A DNA stretch of 64,000 nt from an uncultured Clostridia bacterium. GTDB taxonomy: Bacteria > Bacillota > Clostridia > TANB77 > CAG-508. Under the pieces are notes generated by a model. The model saw only the letters and a list, made by a program, of their open reading frames with translations. It had not been told where the DNA came from and searched no databases. This document shows positions 20,729 to 62,227 of this stretch, in pieces. A program made the translations under genes and the position numbers. Numbering within the stretch: position 1 is the stretch's first letter; each line of letters starts with the position of its first letter. The DNA lies in NCBI GenBank assembly GCA_948524275.1, contig CAOSLI010000001.1, forward strand, positions 329,198-393,197, given 5' to 3'.

Positions 20729-20790
20729 TTTCAACCAATAGGGACGTGCACTTTTGGTTGACCACAGGTACACGTCCCCATTGGTTGAAA
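20729..20790. repeat. GC-rich palindromic intergenic repeat, copy 1
   Basis: Inverted arms TTTCAACCAATAGGGACGTG / CACGTCCCCATTGGTTGAAA around TTTTGGTTGACCACAGGTACACG; shares GGGACG/CGTCCC and TTTTGGTYGACCA motifs with copies at 46598, 49546, 62153. Confidence 0.8.
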
Positions 20791-20804
20791 TCAGGAGGCG
20801 TAAA

Positions 20805-22035
20805 ATGAAGAGACCAGAATTATTAGCACCAGCAGGTTCTTTTGAAAAAGCAAAGGAAGCATTTTTATATGGAGCAGATGCAGTGTATTGCGGGACAGGT
20901 GAATTATCACTAAGAAGTAGAGCAGAAGTTGATAATGAGAGCTTAGCAAAAACAATTGAATATGCACATAGCAACCGGAAAAAAAGTATATACAACAATT
21001 AACATATATGCACAAGATAGCATGTATGATGATATAAAAAAACAAGTAGAAATGCTTGATAAATTAAAAGTTGATGCAGTAATTGTATCAGACGGCGGCA
21101 TTGTAGATATTATAAAGGAGATAGCACCTAATATTCCTATACATATTAGTACGCAAGCAAATACTTTAAGTGCACACACAGCAAGATTTTGGCAAAAGAA
21201 TGGTGCGTCAAGAGTAATTCTTTCTAGAGAAATGAATAAAGAGCAAATAAAAGACTTAATAAATAATATTCCACAAGAGTTAGAAACTGAAATTTTCATA
21301 CATGGAGCAATTTGTTGGGCTTATTCAGGAAGATGCTATTTAAGTGATTTTTTATCTTGCAGAAATGCGAACTTAGGAGATTGTGCACAAAGCTGTAGAT
21401 GGGCATATAACGTTTATATAGAAGAAAAAAATAATCCAGGAAATATTATGCCAGTTGAAGAAGATAGTAATGGAACATATATATTGTCATCAAAAGATTT
21501 ATGCCTAATTAAAAATATTCCAGATATCATAGAAATGGGCGTAACTAGCCTTAAAATAGAGGGAAGACTTAAATCAGAATATTATTTAGCAAGTGTTGTA
21601 AATGCATATAGAAATGCAATAGATGACTATATGAAATTACCCGAAAATTATGACTATACTAAATATTTGAAAGAATTAGAGAAAGTTAAAACTAGAGATA
21701 TAACGCAGTTCTTTTTTGAGGATAAGAATAATAAGGATTTCCAAGAATTCGAGGGAAAACAATATAACCCAGAGTATGAATATGGAGCACAAGTACTAGA
21801 ATATAGCGAAGATAAATCTATTGTAAAGATAGGAAATAAATTGAATATAGGCGACAAAATGGAAATAATAATTCCAAATAAAATAGAGCCAGTAGAATTT
21901 ATTATAGATAAGATGTGGGATACAGAGACGGATGAAGAAATAGAGACTATAAATCCGGGAAAAGTAGGACAGACTGTAAAGATGCACTTACCAATTAAAT
22001 GTGAAGAAGGCTGGATGATTAGAAGAAAAAAATAA
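20805..22035 (+). pseudogene. Peptidase U32 family protein (collagenase-like), disrupted by +1 frameshift
   Basis: N-terminus MKRPELLAPAGSFEKAKEAFLYGADAVYCG...EYAHSN (frame 0, ends TAA 21000-21002) continues in frame +1 from about 20977 as GKKVYTTINIYAQ...DAVIVSDGGIVD. The shift lies at AACCGGAAAAAAAGT (20973-20987, A7 run). RBS AGGAGG before ATG 20805. Confidence 0.7.
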
Positions 22036-22176
22036 ATTAAGGGGTCAGGCACTCTCAAAAAACAATCTGCATATAATTAAAATGTAGGTTGCAAAATGAG
22101 AGTGTCTTTGTAAATAGCATATATACTCAGATTATGTATATAAATTAAATACATGCAACTTAGGAAAGGACATTTT

Positions 22177-22875
22177 ATGTTAGGTATTTCTATTTCAGGT
22201 TTTTTAGCTTTTGTTGGCTCAGGATTATTTACTGTTGGTTACATAGCTAATAACAACCTATTTCCAGAAGCGTTAAGTGCAGAAGATGAAAGAAAATATA
22301 TAAAATTTATGGAAGAAGGAAACGAGGAAGCAAGAAATATTTTAATAGAACATAATTTAAGATTAGTGGCGCATGTAAGCAAAAAATATGCTAATTCAAA
22401 TGTGGATCAAGACGACCTAATATCAATAGGTTCAATAGGTCTAATTAAGGGAATAAATAGTTACAATTCAGAAAAGAATATAAAACTTTCTACATATATT
22501 TCTAAATGTATTGATAACGAAATTTTAATGCATTTAAGGTCATCAAAAAAACTAAATCAAGAGGTTTATTTAGAAGAGCCAATTGGAAAAGATAAAGATG
22601 ATAATACAATTACATTAAAAGATGTACTAGAAAATGAAGAAAAGCCAATAGAAGAAGAAATAGAACTTAAGTTTAGAATAAGTAAATTATATGAAAAAAT
22701 ACGAACAATTTTAAAGGGACGAGAAAGAAGAATCATTGAATTAAGATTTGGACTAAATGGAGAAGAACCAAAGACTCAAAATGAGATTGCAAAAGGCATG
22801 GGGATATCACGTTCATATGTTTCAAGAATAGAAACAAAAGCAATAGGAAAACTAGCAAAGGAATTGCAGGAGTAA
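22177..22875 (+). CDS. sigK: Sporulation sigma factor SigK (pro-sigma-K with N-terminal pro-sequence), uninterrupted
   Basis: MLGISISGFLAFVGSGLFTVGYIANNNLFPEALSAEDERKYIKFMEEGNEEARNILIEHNLRLVAHVSKKY aligns with B. subtilis pro-SigK. Region 4 is ISRSYVSRIETKA. No intervening (skin-like) element. Confidence 0.85.
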   Translation: MLGISISGFLAFVGSGLFTVGYIANNNLFPEALSAEDERKYIKFMEEGNEEARNILIEHNLRLVAHVSKKYANSNVDQDDLISIGSIGLIKGINSYNSEKNIKLSTYISKCIDNEILMHLRSSKKLNQEVYLEEPIGKDKDDNTITLKDVLENEEKPIEEEIELKFRISKLYEKIRTILKGRERRIIELRFGLNGEEPKTQNEIAKGMGISRSYVSRIETKAIGKLAKELQE

Positions 22876-22876
22876 T

Positions 22877-22904
22877 AAAAAGTCATTCATGTGAATGGCT
22901 TTTA
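22877..22904 (+). terminator. Intrinsic terminator after sigK
   Basis: AGTCATTCA-TG-TGAATGGCT followed by TTTT. Confidence 0.7.
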
Positions 22905-23079
22905 CTAACACTAAATGTTACACAAATGTAATAATAAAAGCATTGAATAAAATTTAGAATAAATATATAATTGTAAAGAATAAAAATATATGCCTACAAA
23001 GAGGATTTAAATTAAGGAATAATATATTATAAAAACAATGGAAAAACGTAATTTTAAAGTAACAAAGGAGGAAATAAAA

Positions 23080-25701: not shown

Positions 25702-25772
25702 AATATAGGACGGTTTAAAGGCTTTTTACCAAAAAAACGTCCTATATAGACATAAAATGCCAAGGAGAAATA

Positions 25773-28004
25773 ATGAATATAAACGACTTAAGAAAACTAT
25801 TAGAAAGTTCGAGTGATAGATTGTCAGTATTATTGGACATGAATACAATAATGCAATGCGAAAATCTTACTATAAAAGATTTTAAAGATATAGTAAGTGA
25901 ATTTTTAAGCGACGAGGAAAAATTTCAATTTTTAAAAGCTCCTGAGATGAAGAAATTAAATAGTACTACAAAAGCAAGTATAATCAGTCTTATATTAGAT
26001 GAAAATGTATGTTCACAAATAGTAAACGATGAAGAATTATTATCAAATTTGAGTAACAATCAAATTAAGGATATTGCGGAGAGAATAAATGATGATTTAA
26101 AAAAACAATTATTATATAATTCAGAATTCCTAAAAAAGTATGAATATGGAGATTACGATGTTAAATTACTGATATCAAGTTGTGATGAAAATACAATACA
26201 AGAAATACTTAAGGATAAAATACTTGTAACGGAGAAGCTAAAGTTTGAGACATTTCAAATTGCTACATTACTTCAAGAGATAGATAGTGATGAAGTAAAA
26301 TTAAATTTAGTAGAGTACTATGGAATAGAAGGAAGTTACGCAGTTGATGTTATAAATTCTTGCAGTACAGATACTAAATTAAAGATAATATTAGAAGATG
26401 AAAAATTTAGTACAGGGGATAAAAATAGAGTTATATTATCACTAGAACCTAAATCATTTTGCGAATTTATAATAAATAATAAAGATTTTTTAGAAAAAAT
26501 AAATACACATCCATATGAATTAACAAATAGATTGAGTTCTGAAGCACAAAAATATGTTGTACAACACATCGAAGAGCTTGGAGTTGATATAGATGAAAAA
26601 AGACGTATATTAGCAATTTTAAAAGATGAAGTGAAAAAAGATATTGATGTAAAGGACCTTCCAGAAGAATATAAAACAGCCTTAAGCATGGAAAGAGCAC
26701 AACCATACAGCCCATTTATTAAATTTGATTCAGATAGAAATTTAGAAGAGTATCGTGGATTAGATGATTTAATAAATATAAGACCAGAAGAACTAACTGT
26801 TGAGCAAAAGAAACGACTCTTGGAGTTATGTGATATCTGTCCTAATGCAAAGGTGTTTAATAGATTAGAAAAAGATAGTATTATAGGTTTTTTATCTACA
26901 GCAAAAGAATATAAAGAAGCGGAAAAATGGATAGACTCTGTAATTGATAGCTTAGATCCAGAATGGACTGACTTAGAAAAATTGGCTGCAATAGACAATG
27001 CTGTTGGTAAGAAGATTAGCTACGCTCCAGATTTTGACACAGAAGTATCAGATGGTGATGCTGTTAGAGCATTATGGAAGATAATTAGTACTGGGTATGG
27101 CGTATGCAATGGAATATCTAGAGTAGAAAAAGAAATTTTAGATAGAGTTGGAATAGAAAGCGAAGTTGTTTCTAGTGGCACACATGCATTTTTGAAAATC
27201 AAAGATATTGAAATTCCATCAGAGAATGGAGAAATGATAAGAGGAAACACAATAGTGGACCCAACTTGGAATTTGACAGAAAATAGATATGGAGCAAAAC
27301 CAAGCAACTTTTGTGTAAGCTATGAAGAAATTAGGAAAAATGACATAGATGATGAAGGTAAAGACCATGCTTGCCATTTAAATGATGAAAAATTGCAAGA
27401 TGCAACACTTAATTTAGATGAAGAAAACTTAAGAAGAACATATTATAGCATTGGGATGACAAATAGAGATGGGGAATTTCCAATAGTCTCTTTGATAAAT
27501 ATATCTGACAATATAGATGAGATATTTGCTAATAATCCTAAAGGAAATGTTTATGCACAATTACAATTTCTTGAAAAATATTATCCTGACTTTGCAGAAT
27601 GTCAGAACTCCACGATTGCAGTATTAAGCCAAATATTACTTAATCATCAAAATCTTAATTTTAACCAATGTGTTGTAAATAGGGTATATAATAGAGATGA
27701 TGAAGAAAAGAAACCAACATTTTATGCTTATATTGATTATCCTAATGAAATTGGTAAAAAGTTTTTTGTAGCAAATAAAGTAGAAGGAAGATTTGATGAA
27801 TATAGTCTAGAAGAATTTGAAAAGCAATTTGAATGTTACGAAATGGATTTAAAAAGAGGTAATGGAGTTAGACCATGGCAAAAAGAAAGTCGTGAAAATG
27901 AAAATATAGACTTATCTAGAAGTTCAGGAAAAGTTGTGGCAGCAGAGGAAAAAAGTATAAGCTCGAATGAGAATTCAGAACAATTAGATGAGGAGGGAAG
28001 ATAG
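25773..28004 (+). CDS. Large cytoplasmic protein with C-terminal transglutaminase-like cysteine protease domain
   Basis: 743 aa, no signal peptide; GYGVCNGISRV...SSGTHAFLKI...GNTIVDPTW consistent with a Cys-His-Asp transglutaminase core. Confidence 0.5.
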   Translation: MNINDLRKLLESSSDRLSVLLDMNTIMQCENLTIKDFKDIVSEFLSDEEKFQFLKAPEMKKLNSTTKASIISLILDENVCSQIVNDEELLSNLSNNQIKDIAERINDDLKKQLLYNSEFLKKYEYGDYDVKLLISSCDENTIQEILKDKILVTEKLKFETFQIATLLQEIDSDEVKLNLVEYYGIEGSYAVDVINSCSTDTKLKIILEDEKFSTGDKNRVILSLEPKSFCEFIINNKDFLEKINTHPYELTNRLSSEAQKYVVQHIEELGVDIDEKRRILAILKDEVKKDIDVKDLPEEYKTALSMERAQPYSPFIKFDSDRNLEEYRGLDDLINIRPEELTVEQKKRLLELCDICPNAKVFNRLEKDSIIGFLSTAKEYKEAEKWIDSVIDSLDPEWTDLEKLAAIDNAVGKKISYAPDFDTEVSDGDAVRALWKIISTGYGVCNGISRVEKEILDRVGIESEVVSSGTHAFLKIKDIEIPSENGEMIRGNTIVDPTWNLTENRYGAKPSNFCVSYEEIRKNDIDDEGKDHACHLNDEKLQDATLNLDEENLRRTYYSIGMTNRDGEFPIVSLINISDNIDEIFANNPKGNVYAQLQFLEKYYPDFAECQNSTIAVLSQILLNHQNLNFNQCVVNRVYNRDDEEKKPTFYAYIDYPNEIGKKFFVANKVEGRFDEYSLEEFEKQFECYEMDLKRGNGVRPWQKESRENENIDLSRSSGKVVAAEEKSISSNENSEQLDEEGR

Positions 28005-28006
28005 AA

Positions 28007-28243
28007 ATGAAAGTTATAGAAAAAATAACTATGTTTTTTAAAAATATCTTTAAAAAGCAAGCTAAAGTTAAAATGATAGAAGCTCCTCAAATTAAAATTG
28101 AAGAAGAAGGAAATGAAAAGATAAATAATGATTTTAGACAATCACTAAAGGTAAATGCGGAAGAAAAGAGAGAAAAACAGACAGTTAAAACTTTAATATG
28201 TGAAGGCGATGGACTTGGAATAAAGCCGAAAATGAGTTCTTAA
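28007..28243 (+). CDS. Hypothetical small protein (78 aa)
   Basis: ORF 3 nt after previous stop; K/E-rich, no recognised domain. Confidence 0.35.
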   Translation: MKVIEKITMFFKNIFKKQAKVKMIEAPQIKIEEEGNEKINNDFRQSLKVNAEEKREKQTVKTLICEGDGLGIKPKMSS

Positions 28244-28283
28244 TAATGTTACAGAATTGTAATATTAAATAAACGAAAAACCA

Positions 28284-28312
28284 TTGACCTTTTTAACATA
28301 AATATATATAAT
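28284..28312 (+). promoter_or_regulatory. Sigma-A-type promoter upstream of GLUG-repeat gene
   Basis: TTGACC - 17 nt - TATAAT; leader contains hairpin ATGCTATGG...CATAGCAT. Confidence 0.5.
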
Positions 28313-28370
28313 GCTATGGAAAATAATTACATAGCATTGGTAATGTGAAATAAAAACAAAGGAGTAAAAA

Positions 28371-31300
28371 ATGAGAAAAAATAGCAAAGAAAAAGGTATA
28401 ACGTTAATTGCGTTAGTTGTTACAATTATAATATTATTGATATTAGCTGCAATAGGCTTAAGAGGAATTGATACTTTAGTCTTCAAGGCAAAAGATGCAA
28501 CTAACAGATGGAAAGCTGCAGAAGAAGATGAAGTAAATGAGCTAGATAAAATAGCAAGTATAATTGATGGTAATCCAGAGGACCCAATGCCACAAACACC
28601 TGATATACCAGGGATACCAGATGTATCACCTGACATAGATGGATTGCCTGAAACAAAACCATATACATATTTTCCACCAGACTATATACCAATTTATACA
28701 GTTGAACAATATAAAGACATTGCATCTGAAAAGTCTAGTTATGTGATAAACGATTTATCAGGTACATATGTAGGAACATATACAATGGCGACAAATGCCA
28801 CATATGTATTTATGAATAATATAGACTTTGCAAGTGCAGGAAATGTACCAACAATAAAAAATTTTAACGGAACACTAGAGGGAAACGGATGTACAATAAG
28901 TAACATCTCAATAGATACTACTGGCTTAGAAAATGACTATACACGTATTGCTGGTGGAGACCCAAAATATCCAAGACCAGCAGGAATGTTTGAATGCGTA
29001 ACAGATGCAACAATAAGAAATTATGCAGTAGTAAATGCTAATATAAAATCTAAAGAGAGTGCAGCCGCAATCACTGCTCAATGTAATAATGCAACAATAA
29101 CAAATTGCTATGTAAAAGATTCTACTATAGATGGAATGAATTCTGCAGGAATTGTAGGTTATATAGGACCAAGAGGAGTAATAATAAGTAAATGTAAAAC
29201 CATTTCAACGAATATGCCTGGAACATCTGCAACAGCTGGAATTGCATCAACTTCATATGGAGACATAACGATAAATGATTGTAACGTAACAAAAAGTTCT
29301 ACAACTAATAGCATGAAACTAAATTCAGGAATTTTGTATTATACAGCAAATGATAAAACTACTACTATTAATAATTGTAATGTTCAAGATATTGAACTAA
29401 AAGATAATGATTCAGCTGGTATATTAGCTGTAGCAAATGGAAATGTCACAATTGATAAATGTAATACTAAAAAGTTATCTGGTTCAGGAGCATTATTATT
29501 AGGATATGTGGGAAATAATGGAGAAAGTGTATCTGTAACTAATTGTTCAAGCCAATCATCAGAGATGACAAAATCTGATGGAATGATACGTGAAATTTAC
29601 CTGAAAGGTAGTAGCTATGAAACTAGTGTAAATGTAGAAAATTGTTCAATGAAAGATATAAAGGCTACTGGAACCACATATAGTGCAAGTTTTGGATTGA
29701 TAGGCGAATGCCAAAATGTAAAAGATTTAAAAATATCAAAATGTTCTGCAGTGGGAATTGAGTTTACTAATGGAGATTCAGTTGCTGGAATATTGGGGCA
29801 TGTTTACTCAAACCTTAAAAATTTAGAAGTATCAGATTGTCATGTAGATAATATAAAAATTAATACTGCAAAAAATGCGGCAGGAATAGTAGCAGCATTT
29901 CAAGGAGAAAATATTACAGTTACAGAATGTAGCTCAAATAATCTTACAGTAGAATCGATACGTTCTATGACTGGTGGAATTGTTGCAATGTCAGAAAATA
30001 AACCACTTACTGTAAAGAATTGTACAGTTGCAAACTTTGATGCTAGCAAAGGTGAAGCTAGTGAATTACAAAAAGTGGGTGGTGCTATAGGCTTTTCGGG
30101 AACTGGAAACAATAATGCTGTAATAGAAAATGTAAAAGTATATAATAGTAAATTAGGCACTGGAGTTGGAATAGTTAATCAACTTGCTATTGGTGGAATA
30201 TGTGGTATGTCAACTGCAAAAGAAATAAATAATTGTTATGTAAAAGACGTTGAAATAAATGGAAAAAATTGTGAAGCAGTAGGTGGATTAATTGGAATTT
30301 CGCAGGTAGAAATGTCTATGACAAAATGTGCTGTTAATAATTGCAAAGTTGTATGTAACGAATCTGGAAAAGAATCAAAACAAGTGGGGGGAATTTTAGG
30401 ACAAGAATATACGAGAGCGACAATTAAAGATGCTATAGTAAATAACTTTAGCACTGAATTTGATACTACATCAGGTAAGTGTGAATTTATTGGTGGAGTA
30501 GTTGGTCTAGGAGGAGCATATGGCGGATCAATTACAATTGATAATGTAAATGTAAATCATTCAAAATTAAAAAGTGGTGGAAGAACTGGCGGTATGATAG
30601 GATATTCTCCTAATGCTAATGTTGCAAATAGTAAAGTTTATGAAACGTGGCTATATATGCATTGTAATGATAATAATATGAGAGCTGTTGGAGGAATTGT
30701 TGGATATGCAAGTACATCTAATATAGATAATGCAATTGTAGACCATGTAGGAATAGAAAGCCATGTACGTGTAGGTGGAATAGTAGGATTTGGAGATAAC
30801 ATAAATATAAGTAATAGTAAAGTTGATATGACAGGTATAAAAGTAACAGCTACAGCTAGATCTACATATGCAGGAGGAATTGCAGCATATGCACCATTTA
30901 ATTGTAAAATAGAATCTTGCAGTCTTTATGGAACAGAAATAAGATTAACAGGTGATGGACAAGAAGCATCTCTTGGAGGAATTGTAGGGCATGGAAATAA
31001 CTCATCAAATTCAAATTCACTTATTACAAAATGTAATTTAGATAGTTGTAAATTTGAAGGAACAAGTGGAGTCGGAGGAATAGCAGGAGTAGCAGTTCCA
31101 AACATAATAGATTGTCATACTAAAAACACTTACGTAGAAGGAACAATAGGTAATATTGGTGGTATATTAGGATATGGTGGTGCTACAAGCACAATAAATA
31201 GCACAACAGGAGAAGAAACAAAAAATCGTAAAGCTGTTAATATAACTAACTGTAGCATTGTAGATGGATTTTTAAGTGGACCAAACACTGGAAGTATAAT

Positions 31301-31388
31301 AGGAAAGAATTCACATATGGCTAGTACACCAGATGTTACAGAAGACGTTATAGAAGGATGTACATATCAATTTAAAGAAACTGAATAA
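28371..31388 (+). CDS. GLUG-motif repeat protein (1005 aa) with type IV pilin-like N-terminal segment
   Basis: N-terminus MRKNSKEKG-ITLIALVVTIIILLILAAIG resembles a class III (prepilin) signal but with Ala at +5 instead of Glu. There is a Pro-rich linker, then more than 15 GLUG-like repeats (AGIVGYIG, VGGAIGFSG, VGGLIGIS, VGGIVGYAS, LGGIVGHGN, VGGIAGVA ...). Confidence 0.7.
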   Translation: MRKNSKEKGITLIALVVTIIILLILAAIGLRGIDTLVFKAKDATNRWKAAEEDEVNELDKIASIIDGNPEDPMPQTPDIPGIPDVSPDIDGLPETKPYTYFPPDYIPIYTVEQYKDIASEKSSYVINDLSGTYVGTYTMATNATYVFMNNIDFASAGNVPTIKNFNGTLEGNGCTISNISIDTTGLENDYTRIAGGDPKYPRPAGMFECVTDATIRNYAVVNANIKSKESAAAITAQCNNATITNCYVKDSTIDGMNSAGIVGYIGPRGVIISKCKTISTNMPGTSATAGIASTSYGDITINDCNVTKSSTTNSMKLNSGILYYTANDKTTTINNCNVQDIELKDNDSAGILAVANGNVTIDKCNTKKLSGSGALLLGYVGNNGESVSVTNCSSQSSEMTKSDGMIREIYLKGSSYETSVNVENCSMKDIKATGTTYSASFGLIGECQNVKDLKISKCSAVGIEFTNGDSVAGILGHVYSNLKNLEVSDCHVDNIKINTAKNAAGIVAAFQGENITVTECSSNNLTVESIRSMTGGIVAMSENKPLTVKNCTVANFDASKGEASELQKVGGAIGFSGTGNNNAVIENVKVYNSKLGTGVGIVNQLAIGGICGMSTAKEINNCYVKDVEINGKNCEAVGGLIGISQVEMSMTKCAVNNCKVVCNESGKESKQVGGILGQEYTRATIKDAIVNNFSTEFDTTSGKCEFIGGVVGLGGAYGGSITIDNVNVNHSKLKSGGRTGGMIGYSPNANVANSKVYETWLYMHCNDNNMRAVGGIVGYASTSNIDNAIVDHVGIESHVRVGGIVGFGDNINISNSKVDMTGIKVTATARSTYAGGIAAYAPFNCKIESCSLYGTEIRLTGDGQEASLGGIVGHGNNSSNSNSLITKCNLDSCKFEGTSGVGGIAGVAVPNIIDCHTKNTYVEGTIGNIGGILGYGGATSTINSTTGEETKNRKAVNITNCSIVDGFLSGPNTGSIIGKNSHMASTPDVTEDVIEGCTYQFKETE

Positions 31389-31407
31389 GAAAATATAGGA
31401 TGTAAAA

Positions 31408-32982
31408 ATGAAGGAATATATAAAGCCAATAATTAATTTAACTCTAATATCTTCGCTTATATATATAATATGGAGAGTTATGATTTCCATCCCTTTAGAT
31501 AGGGGATGGAAATCCCTAATTTTCTCTATTATAATTGTAAGCTTAGAGATATTAGATTTTTTTGAATTCTGCATTTTCTATGTGAATTCATTAAAAGGTA
31601 CTAAAAGACATATAATAGACAAAAAAATAAAAGAATATCCTGATGTAGATGTAGTTGTCGTGACACTGAATGAAGACATCAAATTACTTGAAAGAACATT
31701 AAAGGCATGCAACGCTATTTCATATCCCAATAAAGAAAAATTACATATATATGTATCAGATGATGGAAAAAGAGAAGAAGTAAAGATATTAGCTGAAAGT
31801 CTAAATATAAACTATATAACTAGAGAAAATAACATAAATGCAAAGGCAGGAAATTATAACAATCTACTAAATACAATAAAATCACCATATATATTAACCC
31901 TAGATGCAGATATGGCACCTAAAGAAGGCATATTGCTAGATTTAATTCCGCATATAGCAAGGGATAAAGATGTAGGATTTGTTCAAACTCCTCAAGGATT
32001 TGAAAATGGTGATATATATCAATATAGATATGGAATAGATGGATATGTACCAAATGACCAATCATTTTTCTATCATACCTTACAACCATTAAAAAATAAC
32101 ATAAATGCTGTAGTATATTGCGGAACTAATGCAATAATACGAAGAGAAGCATTAGATAAAATAGGAGGATTTGCAGAAGGTGTATTAACTGAAGACATTG
32201 CAACAGGTATGTTAATTCAAAATGCAGGATATAAAGGAATATACATAGACAAGGTAGAAGCAGTAGGATATCAAGAAAACGATTTGAAAAGTTTTATTAA
32301 GCAAAGAACTAGATGGGCTAGAGGATGTATACAAACAAGTAAAAAGGTCAATCTATTAAAAATGAAAGGTCTAAATCTAAAGCAAAAATTAGAATACTTT
32401 TCTTGTTTTTCATATTGGCTGTTTGGAATAAAAAGACTAATATATCTAATAGCACCTTTATTATACAATGCATTTGATGTTATCTTAATAAATACTAGTA
32501 TGATAATATTTACAATAATGTGGCTGCCACAATACGTATTAAAAAGATTTGTTTTAGATAAGGTACTCAATAATGAAAGGTCATCTACTTGGAACAAAAT
32601 ATATGAAATAATATTAACACCAATTTTAAGTGTTCAAGTATTCCTAGAACTAATAGGTATTAGAAAGAAAAAATTTGAAGTATCAAGTAAGAAAAATAAG
32701 GGAAATAAAATTTCTAAAGAGCAAATTTTAATGACCTTGGGACATATATTCTTTATAATCATAAACCTCATTGCTTTAGGAATGAGTGTACTAAAGATGA
32801 ATAATACATTTTCAGATATATTCTCACTAATATGGAGTATGTCGAACTTAATGTATCTATTTATGGCTATTTTATTTGATTTATCAAACAAAAAGAACGA
32901 AGCAAAAGATTGCAGTGAAATATTTAAATATAATAAATGGACAATAATAAAAATGCTTTGGAAAGGGGATAAAAATAATTGA
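31408..32982 (+). CDS. Processive family-2 glycosyltransferase (cellulose synthase BcsA-like catalytic subunit; no PilZ domain seen)
   Basis: N-terminal TM helices; conserved D (YVSDDG), DxD (LTLDADM), TED (LTEDIATG), QxxRW (QRTRWARG); C-terminal TM bundle. Confidence 0.75.
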   Translation: MKEYIKPIINLTLISSLIYIIWRVMISIPLDRGWKSLIFSIIIVSLEILDFFEFCIFYVNSLKGTKRHIIDKKIKEYPDVDVVVVTLNEDIKLLERTLKACNAISYPNKEKLHIYVSDDGKREEVKILAESLNINYITRENNINAKAGNYNNLLNTIKSPYILTLDADMAPKEGILLDLIPHIARDKDVGFVQTPQGFENGDIYQYRYGIDGYVPNDQSFFYHTLQPLKNNINAVVYCGTNAIIRREALDKIGGFAEGVLTEDIATGMLIQNAGYKGIYIDKVEAVGYQENDLKSFIKQRTRWARGCIQTSKKVNLLKMKGLNLKQKLEYFSCFSYWLFGIKRLIYLIAPLLYNAFDVILINTSMIIFTIMWLPQYVLKRFVLDKVLNNERSSTWNKIYEIILTPILSVQVFLELIGIRKKKFEVSSKKNKGNKISKEQILMTLGHIFFIIINLIALGMSVLKMNNTFSDIFSLIWSMSNLMYLFMAILFDLSNKKNEAKDCSEIFKYNKWTIIKMLWKGDKNN

Positions 32983-33959
32983 AAAAATTATTAGTTTTGT
33001 TTTTACTCATCATTGCCATAACAGTATCGATTCCTATATTTTATAGAATAAACAACAATAGAGTTATATATAATGGATTTTTGAAAGTCGATGGTACTAA
33101 ATTAAAAAATAGATTTGGTCAGGAAATTCAGTTAAAAGGCGTAAGCTCACATGGTGTGCAATGGGAGTACACAGACATAATTACAAAGGAAAATCTAAAA
33201 TATCTAAGAGATGAATGGGATATGAATGTTTTTAGAATTGCTATGTATACTGAAGAAGGTGGATATATAAATGACAAGGAGACCAATAAACAAAAAGTAA
33301 TTAGCATAATAGACATCTGTATAGATTTAGATATATATGTTGTAGTAGATTGGCATAATCTTAAAGATGGAGATCCTAACAAAAATAAAGAGGCAGCAAG
33401 GGAATTTTTTGAATTTATATCAGAAAAATATAAAAATGTACCGAATGTTATTTATGAGATTTGTAATGAACCTAATGGAGTATTATGGACAGAACATATA
33501 AAGCCATATGCAAATGAAATTATAGAAATCATAAGAAAAAATACACCAAAGTCACTTATTATAGTGGGCACACCAGATTATTCTAAAGATATTGTATCTG
33601 TAGTGAATTCTAAATTAGAATATAATAATATTTTATATGCATTTCATTTTTATGCAAGTACACACACTGAAATATATAGACAATTTATAAAATACGCGTT
33701 AGAAAATGATGTACCAGTATTTGTTTCAGAATGGGGAACAGGAAATTATACAGGAGATGGTGGATTTGACTATGTAAATTCAGAAGAATGGATGAAATTT
33801 TTAGATGAAAATAATATAAGTTGGATAAATTGGTCATTTTCTTATAAAGATGAAAGCACAGCAATTGTAAAACCTGACATAAAAGATAATATTAATATCA
33901 TTGAAGAAAACTTAACTGACTCAGGAAAATACATTAAAAATAAAATGAAAAAACCTTGA
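32979..33959 (+). CDS. Glycoside hydrolase family 5 endoglucanase (cellulase-like), membrane/secreted
   Basis: N-terminal signal/TM; GVSSHGVQWE, IVDWHNL, catalytic NEP (ICNEPNG) and nucleophile SEWG motifs typical of GH5; 4-nt overlap with GT2. Confidence 0.75.
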   Translation: MKKLLVLFLLIIAITVSIPIFYRINNNRVIYNGFLKVDGTKLKNRFGQEIQLKGVSSHGVQWEYTDIITKENLKYLRDEWDMNVFRIAMYTEEGGYINDKETNKQKVISIIDICIDLDIYVVVDWHNLKDGDPNKNKEAAREFFEFISEKYKNVPNVIYEICNEPNGVLWTEHIKPYANEIIEIIRKNTPKSLIIVGTPDYSKDIVSVVNSKLEYNNILYAFHFYASTHTEIYRQFIKYALENDVPVFVSEWGTGNYTGDGGFDYVNSEEWMKFLDENNISWINWSFSYKDESTAIVKPDIKDNINIIEENLTDSGKYIKNKMKKP

Positions 33960-46589: not shown

Positions 46590-46597
46590 ATTTTTTA

Positions 46598-46662
46598 AAG
46601 CCAAGAAGGGACGGCCCTTTTTGGCCACAATTTCAACCATTGGGGACGGTCTTTCTTGGCCT
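46598..46662. repeat. GC-rich palindromic intergenic repeat, copy 2
   Basis: AAGCCAAGAAGGGACGGCCCTTTTTGGCCACAATTTCAACCATTGGGGACGGTCTTTCTTGGCC; outer arms GCCAAGAA/TTCTTGGC; contains TTTCAACCATTGGGGACGG like copy 1. Confidence 0.75.
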
Positions 46663-46689
46663 GAATTAATAAAATAGGAGGAGAAACAA

Positions 46690-47829: not shown

Positions 47830-47842
47830 AGAGGAAAATATA

Positions 47843-49543: not shown

Positions 49544-49545
49544 AA

Positions 49546-49617
49546 TCAACCAAGGGGACGGGCCTTTTGGTCGACCAAAAAGTACGTCCCTGTGGTCGAC
49601 CAGGGGGACACCCCTTT
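49546..49617. repeat. GC-rich palindromic intergenic repeat, copy 3
   Basis: TCAACCAAGGGGACGGGCCTTTTGGTCGACCAAAAAGTACGTCCCTGTGGTCGACCAGGGGGACACCCCTTT; about 90% identical to reverse complement of copy 4. Confidence 0.85.
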
Positions 49618-52031: not shown

Positions 52032-53393
52032 ATGAAATATTTTGGAACAGATGGAATTAGAAGAATAGCAAATACAGAGCTTACACCAGAGCTAGTATAT
52101 AGAGTTGCTAAAGCAGGTGCTTATGTCTTAGCGAAGCATAGCAATCATGCGCCTACAATTCTTATAGGAAGGGATACTAGAATATCAGGAACGTTAATTG
52201 AAAGCGCTATGACAGCAGGATTTTTAAGCTATGGTGCAAATGTAAAATTAGTAGGGGTAATACCAACACCAGGTGTTGCATATTTGACAAAAAAATTAAA
52301 GGCAGATGCAAGTGTTGTAATATCAGCATCACATAATGCTTATGATTTTAATGGTGTAAAATATTTTAGCAACCTGGGAATGAAGATTCCAGATGAAGTT
52401 GAAGCAGAAATAGAGGAAGTACTTGATTCTGATAAACTAGGTGGGTTTGCAGCGCCAAGTAGTGAAATAGGAGTATCAGAGATTAGAGAAGATTTGTTAG
52501 ATGAATACTTATATTTTTTCAGAAAGAATTTCGAAGATACATTCGAAAAAATAAATAATGATAATTTTGTTGTTGCTATTGATACAGCCAATGGAGCAAC
52601 ATCAGTTATTGCAGATAAAGTATTTACAGCTCTCGGAATAAGACATTACATAATCAACAATACGCCAAATGGTGTTAATATAAATGCAAATTGTGGCTCT
52701 ACACATCTTGATATGTTAAAGAAATTTGTTGTAGCAAATCACTGCAATCTAGGGATCGCTTATGATGGTGATGGTGATAGATGTCTAGCAATAGATGAAA
52801 ATGGTAACTTAATAGATGGTGATATTATTATGGCCATAATTGCTAAATATTTAAAAGAACAGGGAAAACTTAAAAATAACACATTGGTCGCAACAGTAAT
52901 GAGTAATTTGGGACTAAGAAAATTTTGCCAAAACAATGATATAGAATTTAAAGCAACTAAAGTTGGAGATAGATATGTTTTAGAAGAAATGCTTAAAAGT
53001 GGTGACAATATAGGAGGAGAACAATCAGGACATATCATATTCTTAGATTATAATCCAACAGGAGATGGTATCTTAACATCACTAATGCTTCTAATGGTTG
53101 CTTTGGAGAAGAATCAAAGTATATCAGAACTTGCTAAGATAATAAAAATATACCCACAAGTTTTAATAAACGCAAAAGTTTCAAACGACAAAAAATACGA
53201 TTATGACAAAGACGAAGAAATAAAAAATGCTATCCAAAAACTAGAAGAAGAATTTTCTGGAAATGGTAGAGTTCTAATTAGAGCCTCTGGAACAGAACCA
53301 TTAGTTAGAGTTATGATAGAGGGGGAAGACCAGGAATATATTACAGCAAAGGCAAAAGAAGTGGCAGAATTAATTGAAAAGAACTGTAACTAG
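52032..53393 (+). CDS. glmM: Phosphoglucosamine mutase
   Basis: MKYFGTDGIRRIAN, active-site SASHNAYDFNGVKYF, GGEQSGHIIF. Confidence 0.85.
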   Translation: MKYFGTDGIRRIANTELTPELVYRVAKAGAYVLAKHSNHAPTILIGRDTRISGTLIESAMTAGFLSYGANVKLVGVIPTPGVAYLTKKLKADASVVISASHNAYDFNGVKYFSNLGMKIPDEVEAEIEEVLDSDKLGGFAAPSSEIGVSEIREDLLDEYLYFFRKNFEDTFEKINNDNFVVAIDTANGATSVIADKVFTALGIRHYIINNTPNGVNINANCGSTHLDMLKKFVVANHCNLGIAYDGDGDRCLAIDENGNLIDGDIIMAIIAKYLKEQGKLKNNTLVATVMSNLGLRKFCQNNDIEFKATKVGDRYVLEEMLKSGDNIGGEQSGHIIFLDYNPTGDGILTSLMLLMVALEKNQSISELAKIIKIYPQVLINAKVSNDKKYDYDKDEEIKNAIQKLEEEFSGNGRVLIRASGTEPLVRVMIEGEDQEYITAKAKEVAELIEKNCN

Positions 53394-53501
53394 ATTGGGA
53401 CCAAATGTAACAAAAATGTAATATAAACTTAACTAAAAATATATTGTATTATGTCAAAAAAAAGAGTATGATATATTTATCAAACAAAGGAGGAAATAAT
53501 T

Positions 53502-53885
53502 ATGCCAATTATTGATTTTACACAGCCATTATATTTAATAGCAGCTGTTACATTATTCTTATTATGTTTATATTTAGCAAGAAATAATAAGACAAATACT
53601 GTACCTTGTATAATGTTGTTTAGTTTTTTAACGATATTAGTAGGACACACAATAGAACTTGTAAATGGAGGAACTGTTTCAACTTTAGCAACATGCATTG
53701 TAGTTGATGAAGCATTTACATTTGTATCTTTCTTAACATTCCTTTGGTTAGATAGAATTCAAGTTGAAGAAAAGAAGAAAGCGTCTAAAGGAAAAAAGAA
53801 ATCTACCAAAAAGGACAAAAAAGAAAAATTAGATGATGTAGTTATCGAAGATGATGGTTTGGATATTTTATGGAAAAAAGTATAA
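53502..53885 (+). CDS. Small membrane protein with Lys-rich C-terminal tail
   Basis: 127 aa; three hydrophobic helices then KKKASKGKKKSTKKDKKEK. Confidence 0.4.
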   Translation: MPIIDFTQPLYLIAAVTLFLLCLYLARNNKTNTVPCIMLFSFLTILVGHTIELVNGGTVSTLATCIVVDEAFTFVSFLTFLWLDRIQVEEKKKASKGKKKSTKKDKKEKLDDVVIEDDGLDILWKKV

Positions 53886-56226: not shown

Positions 56227-56252
56227 AAAGGCACATATATGTGCCTTTTTGT
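56226..56252 (+). terminator. Intrinsic terminator after smpB (bidirectional)
   Basis: AAAAAGGCACATATATGTGCCTTTTT. Confidence 0.8.
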
Positions 56253-56265
56253 ATAAGTGATATAT

Positions 56266-56583: not shown

Positions 56584-56732
56584 TTCTTTAGGCCTCCTAA
56601 ATTTATTCTTAAGTTTTATGTATTTATAATAATATACTTTGAAAAAAATGTCTAGTGTTTTTTTAATATTTTGTTGAAACAAAAATACCAAAAGATTATA
56701 ATAACATATATAAAATAAATTAGGAGTCAAAA

Positions 56733-57476: not shown

Positions 57477-57554
57477 TTTTTCATCTTTACAACTATTAAT
57501 TATTATTATACAATATTGATATCAAAAAATATAAGATTTTAGGAGAAAATAAAT

Positions 57555-58109: not shown

Positions 58110-58185
58110 TAAAGATTAAATAGAAATGATTTGACAAAGCTTCCAATAAAAAGGAAGCTTTATTGCTAATCAGAAGGTAGGAAAA

Positions 58186-59577: not shown

Positions 59578-59588
59578 GAGGTAGAAAG

Positions 59589-60677
59589 ATGAGTGATAGA
59601 ATAAAAAACATAGTAGTTACAATATCTTTTCTATTGGTTATCATATCTATATTTCTAATAAATCTAATAAAAGAAGATACACAAATATCATTGACTGAAA
59701 GAAGAAAATTAGAGCAGTTTCCTAAATTTTCTATAAAAACATTATTGGATGGTAGCTTATTTGAAAAATTTGAAAAGTATACAATGGATCAATTTCCAGC
59801 AAGAGAGGAATTTAGAACTTTAAAAGCAAATGTAGAAATGAGTTTGTTAAAAAAACAAGATAGTAATAATATTTATCAATATAATGGAAAATTAGTAGAA
59901 CAACTATATCCACTAAACGAAAAATCAGTGGTGAATTTGACGAACAAAATGAATGAGATAAAAGATAAGTATATAACAAATGAAAATAAAGTTTATTATA
60001 CAATTGTTCCAGATAAAAATTATTTTGTAAATAAAAATAACCTAAAACTGGATTATCAAAAACTGAAAGATATAATGAGTAATCGTTTAAAATGGGCACA
60101 GTATATTGAAATATTTGATTGTTTGGAATTATCTAACTATTACAATACAGATTCTCACTGGAAACAGGAAAGACTGCAAAAAGTTGTAGATAGAATTGCA
60201 AGTAAAATGAACTTAAAATTAGATGATAATTATGAAGAGAAGAAAATAACTGATTTTAAAGGTGTTTATGCAGGACAATTTCCAGTTAAAATTGAAAATG
60301 ATGAAATAAGAGTATTAACAAATAATACAATAGAAAGTTGTATAGTATATAACTACGAAACTAACAAAAAAACAAAAATATATGATATGGATAAAATAAA
60401 TGCGCCAGATAAATATGATATATTCTTATCAGGAGCTGCACCACTAATTTCAATTCAAAATCCGAATAACCATAATGATAAAGAACTAATTGTTTTTAGA
60501 GATTCATATGGAAGTAGCTTAGTACCGCTATTAGTAGAAGAATATAGTAAAATAACATTAATAGATACTAGATACATATCTACAAGAATACTGGCAGAAT
60601 ATATAGATTTTAATGATAAAGATATATTGTTTATGTATAGTACATCCATTATTAACAATAGTACTTCCCTAAAATAA
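59589..60677 (+). CDS. DHHW-family protein (MBOAT partner, SGNH-like acyltransferase/esterase)
   Basis: N-terminal TM anchor; YYNTDSHWKQE (DHHW-type motif, here DSHW). Confidence 0.6.
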   Translation: MSDRIKNIVVTISFLLVIISIFLINLIKEDTQISLTERRKLEQFPKFSIKTLLDGSLFEKFEKYTMDQFPAREEFRTLKANVEMSLLKKQDSNNIYQYNGKLVEQLYPLNEKSVVNLTNKMNEIKDKYITNENKVYYTIVPDKNYFVNKNNLKLDYQKLKDIMSNRLKWAQYIEIFDCLELSNYYNTDSHWKQERLQKVVDRIASKMNLKLDDNYEEKKITDFKGVYAGQFPVKIENDEIRVLTNNTIESCIVYNYETNKKTKIYDMDKINAPDKYDIFLSGAAPLISIQNPNNHNDKELIVFRDSYGSSLVPLLVEEYSKITLIDTRYISTRILAEYIDFNDKDILFMYSTSIINNSTSLK

Positions 60678-60763
60678 AAGAAACATTGCTTTGTGTATTG
60701 CCAAATCAAAAAATATAGAATATAATAAACCATGTATAAAAATTCAGTTAGGAGGATATAAAT

Positions 60764-62146
60764 ATGATAGATTCAATGGATACAATAGTTAATTTATGCA
60801 AGGCAAGAGGATATATATATCCTGGCTCAGAGATTTATGGAGGATTAGCTAACTCTTGGGACTATGGACCTTTAGGAGTAGAACTAAAAAATAATATAAA
60901 AAATGCTTGGAGAAAGAAATTTATCCAAGAACAAAAAGATATAGTAGGATTAGATGCAGCAATTATTATGAATCCAGAAACTTGGGTTGCAACAGGACAT
61001 GTTGCAGGTTTTTCAGACCCATTAATTGACTGCAAAGAGTGTAAAACAAGACATAGAGCAGATAAGCTAATTGAAGAGTGGGCTCATGAACATAATCAGG
61101 ATATAGTTGCAGATGGTTGGACAGATGAAGAATTAGTAAACTACATAAATGATAATAAAATTGCATGTCCAAACTGTGGAAAAAACAATTTTACTGGAAT
61201 TAGAAAATTTAATTTAATGTTTAAGACTTTCCAAGGTGTAACAGAAGATAGTACATCAACAGTTTATTTAAGACCAGAAACAGCTCAAGGTATATTTGTA
61301 GACTTTAAAAATGTGTTAAGAACAACAAGAAAAAAGATGCCTATGGGTATTGCACAGATAGGAAAAGCATTTAGAAATGAAATAACCCCTGGAAACTTTA
61401 CATTTAGAACTCGTGAATTTGAACAAATGGAACTTGAATTCTTCTGTAAGCCAGGAACTGATTTAGAATGGTTTAAATATTGGAAAGAATTTTGCAAGAA
61501 ATGGCTTCTTGATTTAGGTATTAAAGAAGAAAATATTAGATTAAGAGACCATTCAAAGGAAGAATTAGTATTTTATAGCAAAGCTACAACTGATATAGAA
61601 TTTGCATTTCCATTTGGATGGGGAGAACTTTGGGGAATTGCTGATAGAACAGATTATGATTTAACTAGACATTCAGAGCATTCAAAACAAGATTTAAGTT
61701 ATTTAGATTCAGATACAAACGAAAAATACATTCCTTATGTTATAGAACCATCATTAGGAGCAGATAGAGTAGCCTTGGCATTCCTTTGCAACAGCTATGA
61801 AGTAGAAGATTTAGGAGAAGGAGATTCAAGGGTTGTAATGCATTTGCATCCAGTAATAGCGCCATATAAAGTTGCAATTTTACCATTATCTAAAAAATTA
61901 AATGAAAAAGCAAATGAAGTTTTCGATAAGCTTTCTAAGAAATTTAGCTGTGATTATGATGAGGCAGGTTCTATTGGAAAAAGATATAGAAGAGAAGATG
62001 AAATTGGAACACCATATTGCGTTACTATTGATTTTGATACACTAGAAGATAATCAAGTAACTGTAAGGGATAGAGATACAATGGAACAAATTCGTATTCC
62101 AATTGACGAACTTGAAAATTATATAAGTGAAAAAATTAAATTTTAA
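60764..62146 (+). CDS. glyQS: Glycine--tRNA ligase (homodimeric class II form)
   Basis: 460 aa; motif 1 [42 protein letters not shown] (motif 2), GADR (motif 3). Confidence 0.9.
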
Positions 62147-62152
62147 TTTTGG

Positions 62153-62227
62153 CTAAGGGGTGTCCCCTTGGTCGACCAGAGGGACGTCCTTTTTGGTCGA
62201 CCAAAAGACCCGTCCCTCTGGTTGATG
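62153..62227. repeat. GC-rich palindromic intergenic repeat, copy 4 (inverted relative to copy 3)
   Basis: GCTAAGGGGTGTCCCCTTGGTCGACCAGAGGGACGTCCTTTTTGGTCGACCAAAAGACCCGTCCCTCTGGTTGATGAAAGG. Confidence 0.85.

Follow-up and report, generated by a model that had tools for sequence, protein, structure and literature searches.

Four short GC-rich palindromic sequences lie between genes in a 64,000-nt stretch of AT-rich DNA (hereafter the window) from an uncultured Clostridia bacterium, and the question raised by this locus is what kind of element they represent. The original prediction was of a dispersed REP/MITE-like family that might also act as a terminator or attenuator. The reading that we favour, with a probability of roughly 0.78, is that the copies are lineage-specific, non-coding, non-autonomous mosaic palindromic repeats which match the REP/BIME (REPIN) type.

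Four copies in the window

When the sequences were re-read, all four palindromic copies were found at the coordinates first claimed for them, and each sits in a gap between genes as had been described (Table 1). Their contrast with the surrounding AT-rich DNA holds, although the GC content of the window is 29.4% and not the ~27% first given. The only intergenic sequences that reach at least 52% GC over a 50-nt window are the four copies and the RNase P RNA and tRNA-Thr genes. The GGGACG/CGTCCC arms and the TTGGTYGACCA motif are found in the window copies as first described, and ACCA-N1-3-GGGACR occurs nine times in the window, always within the four copies, where 0.06 occurrences are expected from shuffles. 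A profile built from 21 units and run with filters off detected no further unit in the window at E ≤ 10, and the full count for the window is therefore four. As proposed, all four copies fold into hairpins, and their stability is far above that of shuffles for RNA (z −3.0 to −9.7) as well as for ssDNA (z −2.9 to −6.2).

Table 1. Repeat copies, their units and the compared sites, in window coordinates.
Feature	Position	Strand	Context
Copy 1	20729..20790	.	gap between truncated Rpn/PDDEXK_2 gene and U32 peptidase gene
Copy 1, type-1a unit	20731-20761	+	
Copy 1, type-1a unit	20758-20788	-	
Copy 2	46597..46664	+	gap between cadherin-like and PFK genes
Copy 2, type-1b unit	46599-46628		
Copy 2, type-1b unit	46633-46661		
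Copy 3	49545..49616	+	gap between argS and Alg14-like gene
Copy 3, type-1b unit	49546-49575	+	
Copy 3, inverted type-1b unit	49570-49599	-	
Copy 3, type-2b cap	49596-49616		
Copy 4	62155..62226	-	gap between glyQS and mreB
Copy 4, unit	62196-62225	-	
Copy 4, unit	62172-62201	+	
Copy 4, cap	62155-62175	-	
Empty site PFK|argS	47830..47842	.	13-nt gap; sister species has ~105-nt family member
Empty site plsY|gpsA	14107..14131	.	sister species carries 73-nt insertion
Putative remnant ATTGGGACC	53394..53402	+	after phosphoglucomutase gene; sister site is a full 80-nt element

Unit structure and arrangement

The copies are mosaics of GC-rich units of ~30 nt with the form TCAACCA-N1-3-GGGGACG-(GGCC or YGYAC)-TTTTGG-TTGA, in which CCA and GGGACG, forming the head, are invariant among the 21 aligned units and TTTTGG forms the tail. 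A single unit is able to fold on itself, but units are also joined head-to-head or tail-to-tail via TGGTCGACCA junctions, and inverted units with a common TGGTYGACCA junction form a hairpin of 54-76 nt. Shorter cap units (GGGACACCCC, GGGACAGGYT) are present at one end of elements.

Copy 3, which starts 2 nt past the argS stop codon, is composed of a type-1b unit, a second such unit in inverted orientation and a type-2b cap (GGGGGACACCCC), and copy 4 has the same architecture on the minus strand. The units of both were matched by the profile, and copy 4 was also scored with the structured model. These two copies had been described as about 90% alike in opposite orientations, which agrees with the 92% complementarity seen over 72 nt. 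Short-read contigs terminate inside copy 3 (L002, L003, L051 and L052) or begin inside copy 4 (L044), and such assembly breaks within copies, also seen for L046, point to their multi-copy nature.

The palindromic design with a GTCGAC centre, as first put forward, does not extend to copy 2, which lies between the stop codon of the cadherin-like gene and the PFK ribosome-binding site; here the two type-1b units (profile scores 20.6 and 24.4 bits) are in direct rather than inverted order and GTCGAC is absent. The outer arms, GCCAAGAA and TTCTTGGC, base-pair.

The guanidine-II (mini-ykkC) riboswitch family, RF01068, aligns end to end with copy 2 and is the only Rfam resemblance of matching architecture. 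Copy 2 would then consist of two tandem ACGR-loop hairpins which dimerise on guanidine and control downstream translation. It does present tandem ACGG-loop hairpins ahead of a start codon, as hairpin 1 (AAGAAGGG-ACGG-CCCUUUUU) closes its ACGG loop with a perfect 8-bp stem, another ACGG loop follows 18 nt downstream, and 28 nt separate the copy from the PFK start. However, the alignment scores 15.7 bits, below half the gathering score of 32 (E 0.13-0.28 on a 71-151-nt target), the second stem is weak and closes with G-U pairs and one non-pair, and GGGACGG is the head of the family unit, found inside long stems in the other copies. Genes downstream of the guanidine-II class are known to encode a guanidine exporter or carboxylase; the gene context of copy 2 is wrong in this respect, the downstream gene encoding phosphofructokinase, and the corresponding site in a sister species has no element. 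A riboswitch at copy 2 is accordingly considered highly improbable.

Copy 1 and constraint on the hairpins

Copy 1 is an inverted doublet (profile scores of the units 29.6 and 24.1 bits; 85 bits with the structured model) whose 58-nt hairpin lies 15 nt ahead of the start codon of the U32 peptidase gene, with an extended −10-like TGGTATTAT just upstream. Its RNA fold has an energy of −37.8 kcal/mol (z −7.2). Copy 1 had been tied to the frameshift in the U32 gene, but the lesion, an extra A in an A7 run (20979-20985), is ~190 nt downstream and unconnected. The frameshift itself is a real, population-wide lesion, separate from the repeat family.

In the sister species of the window species, whose ArgRS is 86-87% identical, the ortholog of copy 1 (L055 9927-9984) is identical at 53 of 58 positions (91%) versus 63.3% at fourfold sites (p ~1e-6), a level of conservation comparable to that of the RNase P RNA (341/372). 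Of the five differences, two together turn an A-T pair into T-A in a compensatory swap, two switch between U-A and U-G wobble, and the fifth is in a mismatch, so that no pair is broken. Across eight doublets, counted with both strands of each element in an alignment that was itself fitted to the model, pairing extends to 93% of cells and 12 of 24 pairs have changed on both sides, which was equalled by none of 500 shuffles. The orthologous copies of one singlet match at only 21/29 positions, with invariant bases lost. Doublets at old shared sites are under pairing constraint and single units decay, in parallel with REPINs, whose doublets show stronger conservation than singlets (PMC3116915). 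A function for the host, or gene conversion, might account for the high conservation of copies 1 and 4, with no relation to mobility.

A host-encoded family of hairpins, acting in cis as structured RNAs or as protein-binding sites and spread by usefulness and not by mobility, would be in keeping with the strong conservation of the copy 1 and copy 4 sites, where changes preserve structure, with the invariant GGGACG, and with a location in the 5' leader or between the cistrons of transcribed operons. It is nonetheless distinctly unlikely, as the neighbouring genes are functionally unrelated (U32 peptidase, PFK, argS, Alg14-like, glyQS, mreB, plsY, der and PGM), elements run with or against transcription (compare copies 3 and 4, and the caps, which lie on either side), most sites differ between the sister species, and no Rfam family corresponds.

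The perfect 10-16-bp palindromes (TTTTGGTCGACCAAAA) are typical of sites for dimeric proteins, and together with the short invariant motif they could point to sites that work at the DNA level, either chromosome-organising (gyrase/IHF-type) or as an uptake signal, the hairpin potential being a by-product. E. coli BIMEs bind gyrase and IHF. Here, however, copies 1 and 2 and most of the sister elements have an imperfect junction palindrome or none, the family is present at ~1 per 7-16 kb and strictly avoids coding sequence, unlike uptake sequences, and the compensatory changes indicate intrastrand pairing, all of which makes this reading very unlikely.

Gain, loss and copying between sister species

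It had been considered that only these four copies might exist, without conservation in relatives. The sister species does carry the family, with eight elements in ~55 kb, some at sites common to the window and most not, and further copies lie just outside the window (L046 and L042), although the total is only ~15 elements in ~128 kb of both species. The elements occupy AT-rich spacers, from a stop codon to the next ribosome-binding site, in either orientation.

Two sites are filled in both species (glyQS|mreB and the one before U32), the two sites of copies 2 and 3 are filled in the window but not in the sister, and five are filled in the sister only (PFK|argS, GT28|Polysacc_synt, plsY|gpsA, behind PGM and ahead of der). 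The sister gap at the copy 2 site is 13 nt, and site comparison detected no element at the copy 3 site. At plsY|gpsA, the sister insertion is a precise TCAACC...GGTTGA of 73 nt directly after the TAA stop, with no target duplication. The sister elements L055 4642-4714 and L040 9899-9974 are near-identical, and their boundaries are exactly TCAACC and GGTTGA. Side-by-side comparison of window positions 53364-53512 with L040 15601-15826 gave the 9-nt remnant behind the PGM gene, which is tentative because it falls below the profile threshold. Elements have been gained, copied and lost between genes in the two sister species.

The copy 4 site is filled in the sister (L053 2700-2781), where the ends are 34/36 identical and the middle unit is missing. 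As this site is common to both species and the copy 3 site is not, copy 3 appears to be a recent copy, apparently made after the species split as an inverted copy of copy 4. The copies of the window species are identical in all sampled strains, and thus no ongoing mobility was observed.

Classical MITEs, which are deletion derivatives of DDE-type IS and move by cut-and-paste via terminal inverted repeats with target-site duplications, would share with these elements the size (55-110 bp), the palindromic TCAACCA/TGGTTGA ends, the intergenic location and the presence/absence between species, and a possible 6-nt AAAATA duplication surrounds the copy 2 block. We think this origin unlikely. The AAAATA match is weak evidence in DNA of 29% GC, whereas the cleanest filled/empty pair, plsY|gpsA, has no duplication and neither has PFK|argS. 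The block shared by copies 3 and 4 ends in a cap unit and not in a matching inverted repeat, the units vary in number and order in a mosaic that is unlike a MITE, and no parent IS with the ends of the family was seen.

Probable transcription of the copies

While the sister elements and their gain and loss bear out a dispersed repeat family, the terminator or attenuator role suggested alongside it is not supported. Rho-independent termination after genes would suit GC-rich hairpins directly behind stop codons, and in copy 3 a small cap hairpin is followed by TTTAAAAAT. However, a sense-strand U-tract follows none of the four copies, a consensus scan calls no copy on the sense strand and finds terminator-like sites no more often than in shuffles, and copy 1 is upstream of its gene, not downstream. 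Within the 13-100-nt gaps no separate promoter is obvious for the genes downstream, and termination would therefore silence essential genes such as mreB. This role is extremely doubtful.

Given the co-oriented flanking genes and the absence of terminator tails, the window copies are probably transcribed within operons. In these transcripts the stable hairpins may act as processing or exonuclease barriers, and copy 1 may act as a 5'-end hairpin. The role in RNA stability that was also put forward at first is hypothetical.

Relatives and a mobilising enzyme

The family had been said to resemble no named element, and indeed no Rfam family reached its gathering score and no counterpart was present in the literature searched. 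No member was found in Rfam, viral contigs, GTDB genomes or JGI metagenomes, and the profile search matched units in the window species and its sister only, with none in ~84 kb from five other loci, a set made up of ~77 kb from more distant relatives (L048, L049, L056, L057 and L041) and of L047, which is a contig of the window species itself and not a relative. Neither the window nor any compared locus of the two species showed a transposase gene of the Y1/HUH or another suitable type. REP-associated (class 2) Y1 transposases have been described mainly from Proteobacteria, Cyanobacteria and Bacteroidetes, and Clostridia are noted solely for the IS200-type class (PMC6006769). Copying of the repeats would proceed via a hairpin of single-stranded DNA, at whose foot the strand would be cleaved and religated by an enzyme that would be encoded elsewhere in the genome and would most likely be an HUH/Y1 (RAYT- or IS200-type) transposase.

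Comparison with known systems

The RUP, BOX, Correia and bcr1 MITEs of Firmicutes and Neisseria are non-coding, intergenic elements of ~60-150 bp which are co-transcribed, form stable hairpins and vary in presence between related genomes, BOX being modular. The family described here is similar in size class, intergenic location, hairpin folding, variable presence and BOX-like modularity, but has no consistent target duplication and no identified parent IS, and its unit is much shorter, reiterated in both orientations and GC-rich on an AT-rich background.

The REP/BIME/REPIN elements of E. coli and Pseudomonas (PMC3116915, PMC6006769) are closest, being short imperfect palindromes that are strictly extragenic and lack target-site duplications, with several sub-types per genome. 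They share the mosaics of alternating orientation with small accessory motifs, and the inverted doublets that form long hairpins with compensatory changes and outlast singlets. The present sequence, however, is unrelated and lacks the GT[AG]G head by which classical REPs are typically recognised, neighbouring units share 4 nt at TCGA-centred junctions instead of being separated by linkers, no RAYT gene was found near the copies, and the host is a Clostridia lineage of 29% GC, where REP-associated Y1 transposases are not highlighted (PMC6006769). The mobile GC clusters of yeast mitochondria (PMC4478555) are also short GC-rich palindromes in AT-rich intergenic DNA that are rapidly gained and lost between close relatives, but they are eukaryotic and organellar, with another sequence and mechanism, and serve as an analogy only. 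The family is new while its kind is familiar, and it does not represent a new kind of system.

Occurrence and folding of the copies

The four copies lie in the sequence where the original prediction had placed them, and all four gaps are flanked by plus-strand genes on either side. The window has a GC content of 29.4%, and the copies are the sole 50-nt stretches at 52-60% GC besides coding segments, the RNase P RNA gene and the tRNA-Thr gene. The head motif ACCA-N1-3-GGGACR occurs nine times in the window against 0.06 expected, and 9/9 occurrences are inside the copies. When a profile built from 21 units was run over the window with filters off, it matched eight full units and two cap units (a shorter form of the unit), all in copies 1-4, and four is therefore the full count for the window. 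RNA folding of the copies gave -26.6 to -47 kcal/mol (z -3.0 to -9.7 against shuffled controls), and folding as ssDNA was also much better than that of shuffled controls.

Table. Features of the window and of related contigs (L numbers; positions count within the window unless a contig is named)
Feature	Position	Description
Copy 1	20729-20790	Gap between the truncated Rpn/PDDEXK_2 gene and U32 peptidase
Copy 2	46597-46664	Gap between a cadherin-like protein and phosphofructokinase (PFK)
Copy 3	49545-49616	Gap between argS and an Alg14-like glycosyltransferase
Copy 4	62155-62226	Gap between glyQS and mreB
tRNA-Thr gene	9204-9279	
RNase P RNA gene	18805-19174	Class A, 280 bits
Cysteine-rich ORF	19349-19513; sister species L055 9585-9749	54 aa, MDGNQKIGCKVCSCKHNCDGEFCDLDKICVCP...
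Rpn/PD-(D/E)XK 'putative transposase' gene	19995-20603	N-terminally truncated, profile positions 73-225 of 229
U32 peptidase gene	20805-22035	Split at A7 run 20979-20985
AMP-binding (DltA-like) gene	63285-63728 onward; L042 10001-11855; sister species L053 3867-5717	Split in the window species
AATGTAAC-N-AAAATGTAA motif	53404-53421; L042 ~11905-11935; L053 ~5790-5815; L040 ~15715-15745	Direct-repeat motif
P-type cation ATPase, C-terminal part	1-1334	37% GC vs 29% elsewhere
~8-kb block	25773-33959	Between the glycogen phosphorylase gene and rpsO
IS200-like Y1 transposase gene	L048 18150-18910	165 aa, PF01797, GC-rich end hairpins

Unit anatomy and element architecture

Read all one way, the unit is ~30 nt long and runs TCAACCA, 1-3 variable bases, GGGGACG, a core, TTTTGG and TTGA; the variable core is of two kinds, GGCC-like or YGYAC, and CCA and GGGACG are invariant in 21/21 aligned units. 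It is an imperfect palindrome with self-complementary arms (TCAACCAA/TTGGTTGA). Neighbouring units alternate in orientation and share the palindromic junction TGGT(C/T)GACCA, where they overlap; this junction is the source of the SalI-like GTCGAC, and copies 1, 3 and 4 each therefore fold into one long hairpin. Three units of alternating orientation make up both copy 3 and copy 4, which are 92% complementary over 72 nt. Copy 2 is the exception, with two units in direct order joined only by their outer arms. Many elements carry a cap unit (GGGACACCCC, GGGACAGGYT or GGGACRGACT) at one end, which can be either, and a structured model detects eight inverted doublets.

A direct-repeat motif, AATGTAAC-N-AAAATGTAA, follows GGGACRGACT caps at two loci in both species. 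It is not enriched in the window (3 matches with at most three mismatches against 1.06 expected), and could represent either AT-rich sequence trailing the element or an operator that precedes the next promoter.

The suggestion that the copies act as terminators did not hold up; the sequences trailing them (AAATCAGG, TGAATTAA, TTTAAAAA and TGAAAGGA) are not U-tracts on the sense strand, and the + strand terminators predicted by the scan include no copy.

Distribution in the sister species and wider collections

A search with the ArgRS of the window returned one 100% match, one relative at 86% (87.5% in global alignment) and a large cloud at 72-76%. The 86% relative, assembly GCA_037193845.1, was used as the sister species, and ~55 kb of its DNA that is syntenic with the window (L040, L053 and L055) was examined and carries eight family elements. 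Two sites, upstream of U32 (c1, copy 1) and between glyQS and mreB (c4, copy 4), are common to both species, as is a degenerate element after the AMP-binding gene, for which the window-species site is just past the window end (L042 11861). Five sister sites have no element in the window: between PFK and argS, between GT28 and Polysacc_synt, after phosphoglucomutase (only ATTGGGACC remains there in the window), between plsY and gpsA, and upstream of der. In the sister, the site of copy 2 is a 13-nt gap and that of copy 3 an unrelated 47-nt spacer.

No family member was found in 21 kb of syntenic DNA from a group of relatives with 85% U32 identity (L056/57), nor in 21 kb from a group with 75% ArgRS identity (L048/49), so that only the two species have the family as far as is visible. 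A 79%-identical U32 homolog carries the label 'Clostridia bacterium', and a spoIIIA sporulation operon seen in a relative agrees with that placement.

Scans with the pattern GGGACG-N3-6-TTTTGGTYGACCA gave 20 matches in the GTDB representative genomes and 16 in JGI metagenomes, and two patterns gave a single match in IMG/VR, inside a coding sequence. None of these is a family member, so the source species and the family are absent from the three collections at the exact-pattern level. The GTDB and JGI matches are due to chance in unrelated, mostly GC-rich taxa, with the exception of an unrelated hairpin repeat in a Planctomycetaceae MAG. This MAG, Cd354_bin63, was matched three times (L011 5300-5500, L018 and L021), and its repeat consists of small CGTCCC-NNN-GGGACG hairpins with TACCAAYAT flanks, partly in tandem (period 51). 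Only the GGGACG hexamer is common to this repeat and the Clostridia family, and the repeat looks like an independent REP-like family.

Copying and insertion

Copy 3, which is absent in the sister, is a near-copy in opposite orientation of copy 4, which is at a shared site, and the match ends abruptly at ATCAACCA and, on the opposite side, at CACCCCTT. The simplest reading is that copy 3 was made by copying after the species split. Within the sister, two elements (L055 4642-4714 and L040 9899-9974) are almost identical copies bounded exactly by TCAACC and GGTTGA. Filled and empty alleles between plsY and gpsA differ by precisely the 73-nt TCAACC...GGTTGA block, directly after the TAA stop, and no target duplication was found at this pair. 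As judged from these sequence comparisons, dispersed mosaic palindromes are gained, lost and copied in stop-codon-to-RBS spacers in either orientation, and their boundaries are precise at the hairpin foot and lack target duplication; a possible AAAATA duplication is seen at copy 2 only.

Short-read contigs of the window species end inside copy 3 (L002, L003, L051 and L052) and copy 4 (L044), and another (L046) ends inside a family copy 6.4 kb upstream of the window, which is the expected behaviour of multi-copy or strongly palindromic sequence.

Constraint on the hairpins

Between the window species and the sister, six flanking genes agree at 563/889 fourfold-degenerate sites (63.3%), and intergenic DNA is mostly unalignable. 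The orthologous doublets upstream of U32 are identical at 53/58 positions (p ~1e-6 vs fourfold sites), a conservation comparable to that of the RNase P RNA (341/372 identical with the sister, 92%), and the blocks common to both species between glyQS and mreB at 34/36. Two of the five differing positions in the U32-upstream doublet make up a compensatory exchange of A-T for T-A, a further two switch between U-A and U-G, and the last is in a mismatch; no pair is broken.

Whole-doublet MAFFT alignments are not structural, and the pairing counts were therefore made on doublets of equal length and on an alignment fitted to the model. On the structured model, 93% of cells in the eight doublets are paired and 12/24 pairs have changes on both sides, counts which are small, include both strands of each element and come from an alignment fitted to the model. 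No shuffle or slid register of this alignment approached the observed pairing. The singlet after the AMP-binding gene, a lone unit, is 21/29 identical between the species and has lost invariant bases in both. On the evidence of these alignments, pairing is preserved in the old doublets. Counts of G-T vs A-C mismatches are symmetric on the two strands, so these counts do not separate selection at the RNA level from that at the DNA level.

Other candidate identities

The original prediction could name no element that the family resembles, and this is borne out by Rfam, in which no family reached threshold for any copy or sister element. Permissive mode returned only hairpin-like noise (miRNA precursors and plastid UTRs) and a sub-threshold match of copy 2 to the guanidine-II riboswitch (RF01068; 15.7 bits against a gathering score of 32), with no match to this model in the other copies or the sister elements. 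The aptamer consists of two hairpins with ACGR loops closed by G-C pairs; in copy 2, hairpin 1 is perfect, and hairpin 2 is closed by mostly G-U pairs and one non-pair. The riboswitch was rejected, as the downstream gene encodes PFK and not guanidine export or detoxification and the sister has no element at this site; the likeness is regarded as a coincidence arising from the GGGACGG head motif. An integron attC site was rejected, as the arms do not resemble its core consensus (RYYYAAC/GTTRRRY) by eye and the flanking genes are housekeeping genes. A CRISPR array was likewise rejected, regular spacing with unique spacers being absent.

Neighbouring genes and islands

A single surplus A in an A7 run splits the U32 peptidase gene, and ...NRKKVYTTIN returns once one A is taken out. 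Four other independent assemblies (one NCBI MAG, one ENA and two Logan) have the same 65-aa N-terminal fragment among their gene calls, which makes the lesion a true feature of the population and not a sequencing error; the sister gene is intact (409 aa). The AMP-binding gene is split into ORFs of 147 and 433 aa, the 147-aa product appearing in four assemblies, whereas the sister has one uninterrupted ORF of 616 aa. The split gene is apparently a second pseudogene or a recoding site.

The ~8-kb block next to rpsO is absent in the sister (L055 15981-16187). It encodes proteins of 743 and 1005 aa without a Pfam match, a GT2 glycosyltransferase and a GH5 cellulase, and is probably a lineage-specific surface or polysaccharide island. 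Upstream of the ATPase fragment at the left end of the window, L046 1-6112 carries an ATP-dependent DNA ligase gene and two TerD genes, and two family units are present at its far left end (1-45 and 119-166); this region and the ATPase fragment may together form a horizontally acquired island bordered by repeats. Between the RNase P RNA gene, class A in a lineage labelled Clostridia, and the Rpn fragment is the 54-aa cysteine-rich ORF, which is conserved in the sister and called in several assemblies, with no Pfam match on record.

Mobilising enzyme and proposed mechanism

By analogy with REP/RAYT and IS200/IS605 systems, copying would proceed through a single-stranded DNA hairpin and rely on an enzyme of HUH/Y1 type whose gene lies elsewhere. 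The elements would be transcribed within operons, where the hairpins could serve as processing or exonuclease barriers, and that of copy 1, which closely follows an extended -10-like TGGTATTAT, would be close to the 5' end of the U32 leader. A further-reaching reading, to which we give a chance of about one in five, is that these are self-propagating REPIN-type replicators in Clostridia, moved by an undescribed domesticated Y1/HUH enzyme or by another nuclease class, with the multi-copy Rpn/PD-(D/E)XK genes as one candidate, and that old doublets such as c1 and c4 have been co-opted as RNA hairpins setting the stability of the flanking mRNA.

REP systems have a cognate RAYT (TnpA-REP) gene, present once and with repeats on its flanks. 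No PF01797 or other suitable transposase gene was found in the ~128 kb of the two species (window and fetched loci), and a survey places REP-associated Y1 enzymes mainly outside Clostridia, a group it highlights for IS200-type enzymes (PMC6006769); the enzyme is therefore the weakest link. The only Y1_Tnp seen belongs to an IS200-like insertion in the 75%-identity relative, which is without the family. This insertion is located between a 124-aa ORF and ldh, is absent from another strain (L049), and has ends unrelated to the repeat family.

The Rpn fragment is 125 nt upstream of copy 1, and among plasmid sequences it is most like Clostridium Rpn genes (~35% identity). Two short-read contigs (L060 and L061) end inside it, which suggests several genomic copies of the gene. 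The sister lacks the fragment at this locus and still has the doublet upstream of U32, so the fragment is not needed for the presence of that element.

Implications and comparison with known systems

This documents a REP/BIME-like family in uncultured, very AT-rich Clostridia, a group poorly catalogued for such elements; a comparison of the two sister species reveals its gain, loss, copying and decay alike. The family explains the fragmentation of short-read assemblies at particular intergenic sites, and its elements are usable as strain and species markers. The GGGACG unit is a concrete bait for the mobilising enzyme, which would be of wider interest if it is not a RAYT. Copy 2, mimicking the guanidine-II aptamer by motif accident, is a caution for riboswitch hunting via GC-rich intergenic regions.

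MITEs have terminal inverted repeats; the doublets here end in TCAACCA/TGGTTGA, and the block common to copies 3 and 4 ends on one side in a cap unit. The fixed-length target-site duplication of MITEs is lacking between PFK and argS as it is between plsY and gpsA, and no parent insertion sequence with the ends of the family was found within the ~128 kb read. The GT[AG]G tetranucleotide of REPs is not found at the 5' hairpin foot, where the head is TCAACCA..GGGACG, but certain REP classes also lack it (PMC6006769). REPs are strictly extragenic and present in many copies, and every one of the ~15 elements seen in the ~128 kb of the two species is intergenic. The ~30-nt unit fits the short (about 20-40 nt) imperfect palindrome of REPs, inverted units form hairpin doublets and mosaics, copy 2 with its direct order being an exception, and compensatory changes are seen together with better conservation of doublets than of singlets, in small numbers. 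That doublets are kept and singlets decay parallels REPINs, in which doublets are the more highly conserved (PMC3116915), and the mosaic of alternating units and inverted doublets is the anatomy of BIMEs and REP doublets (REPINs) (PMC3116915, PMC6006769). This is a real REP/BIME-like repeat family, uncatalogued until now and of a kind that is itself already known.
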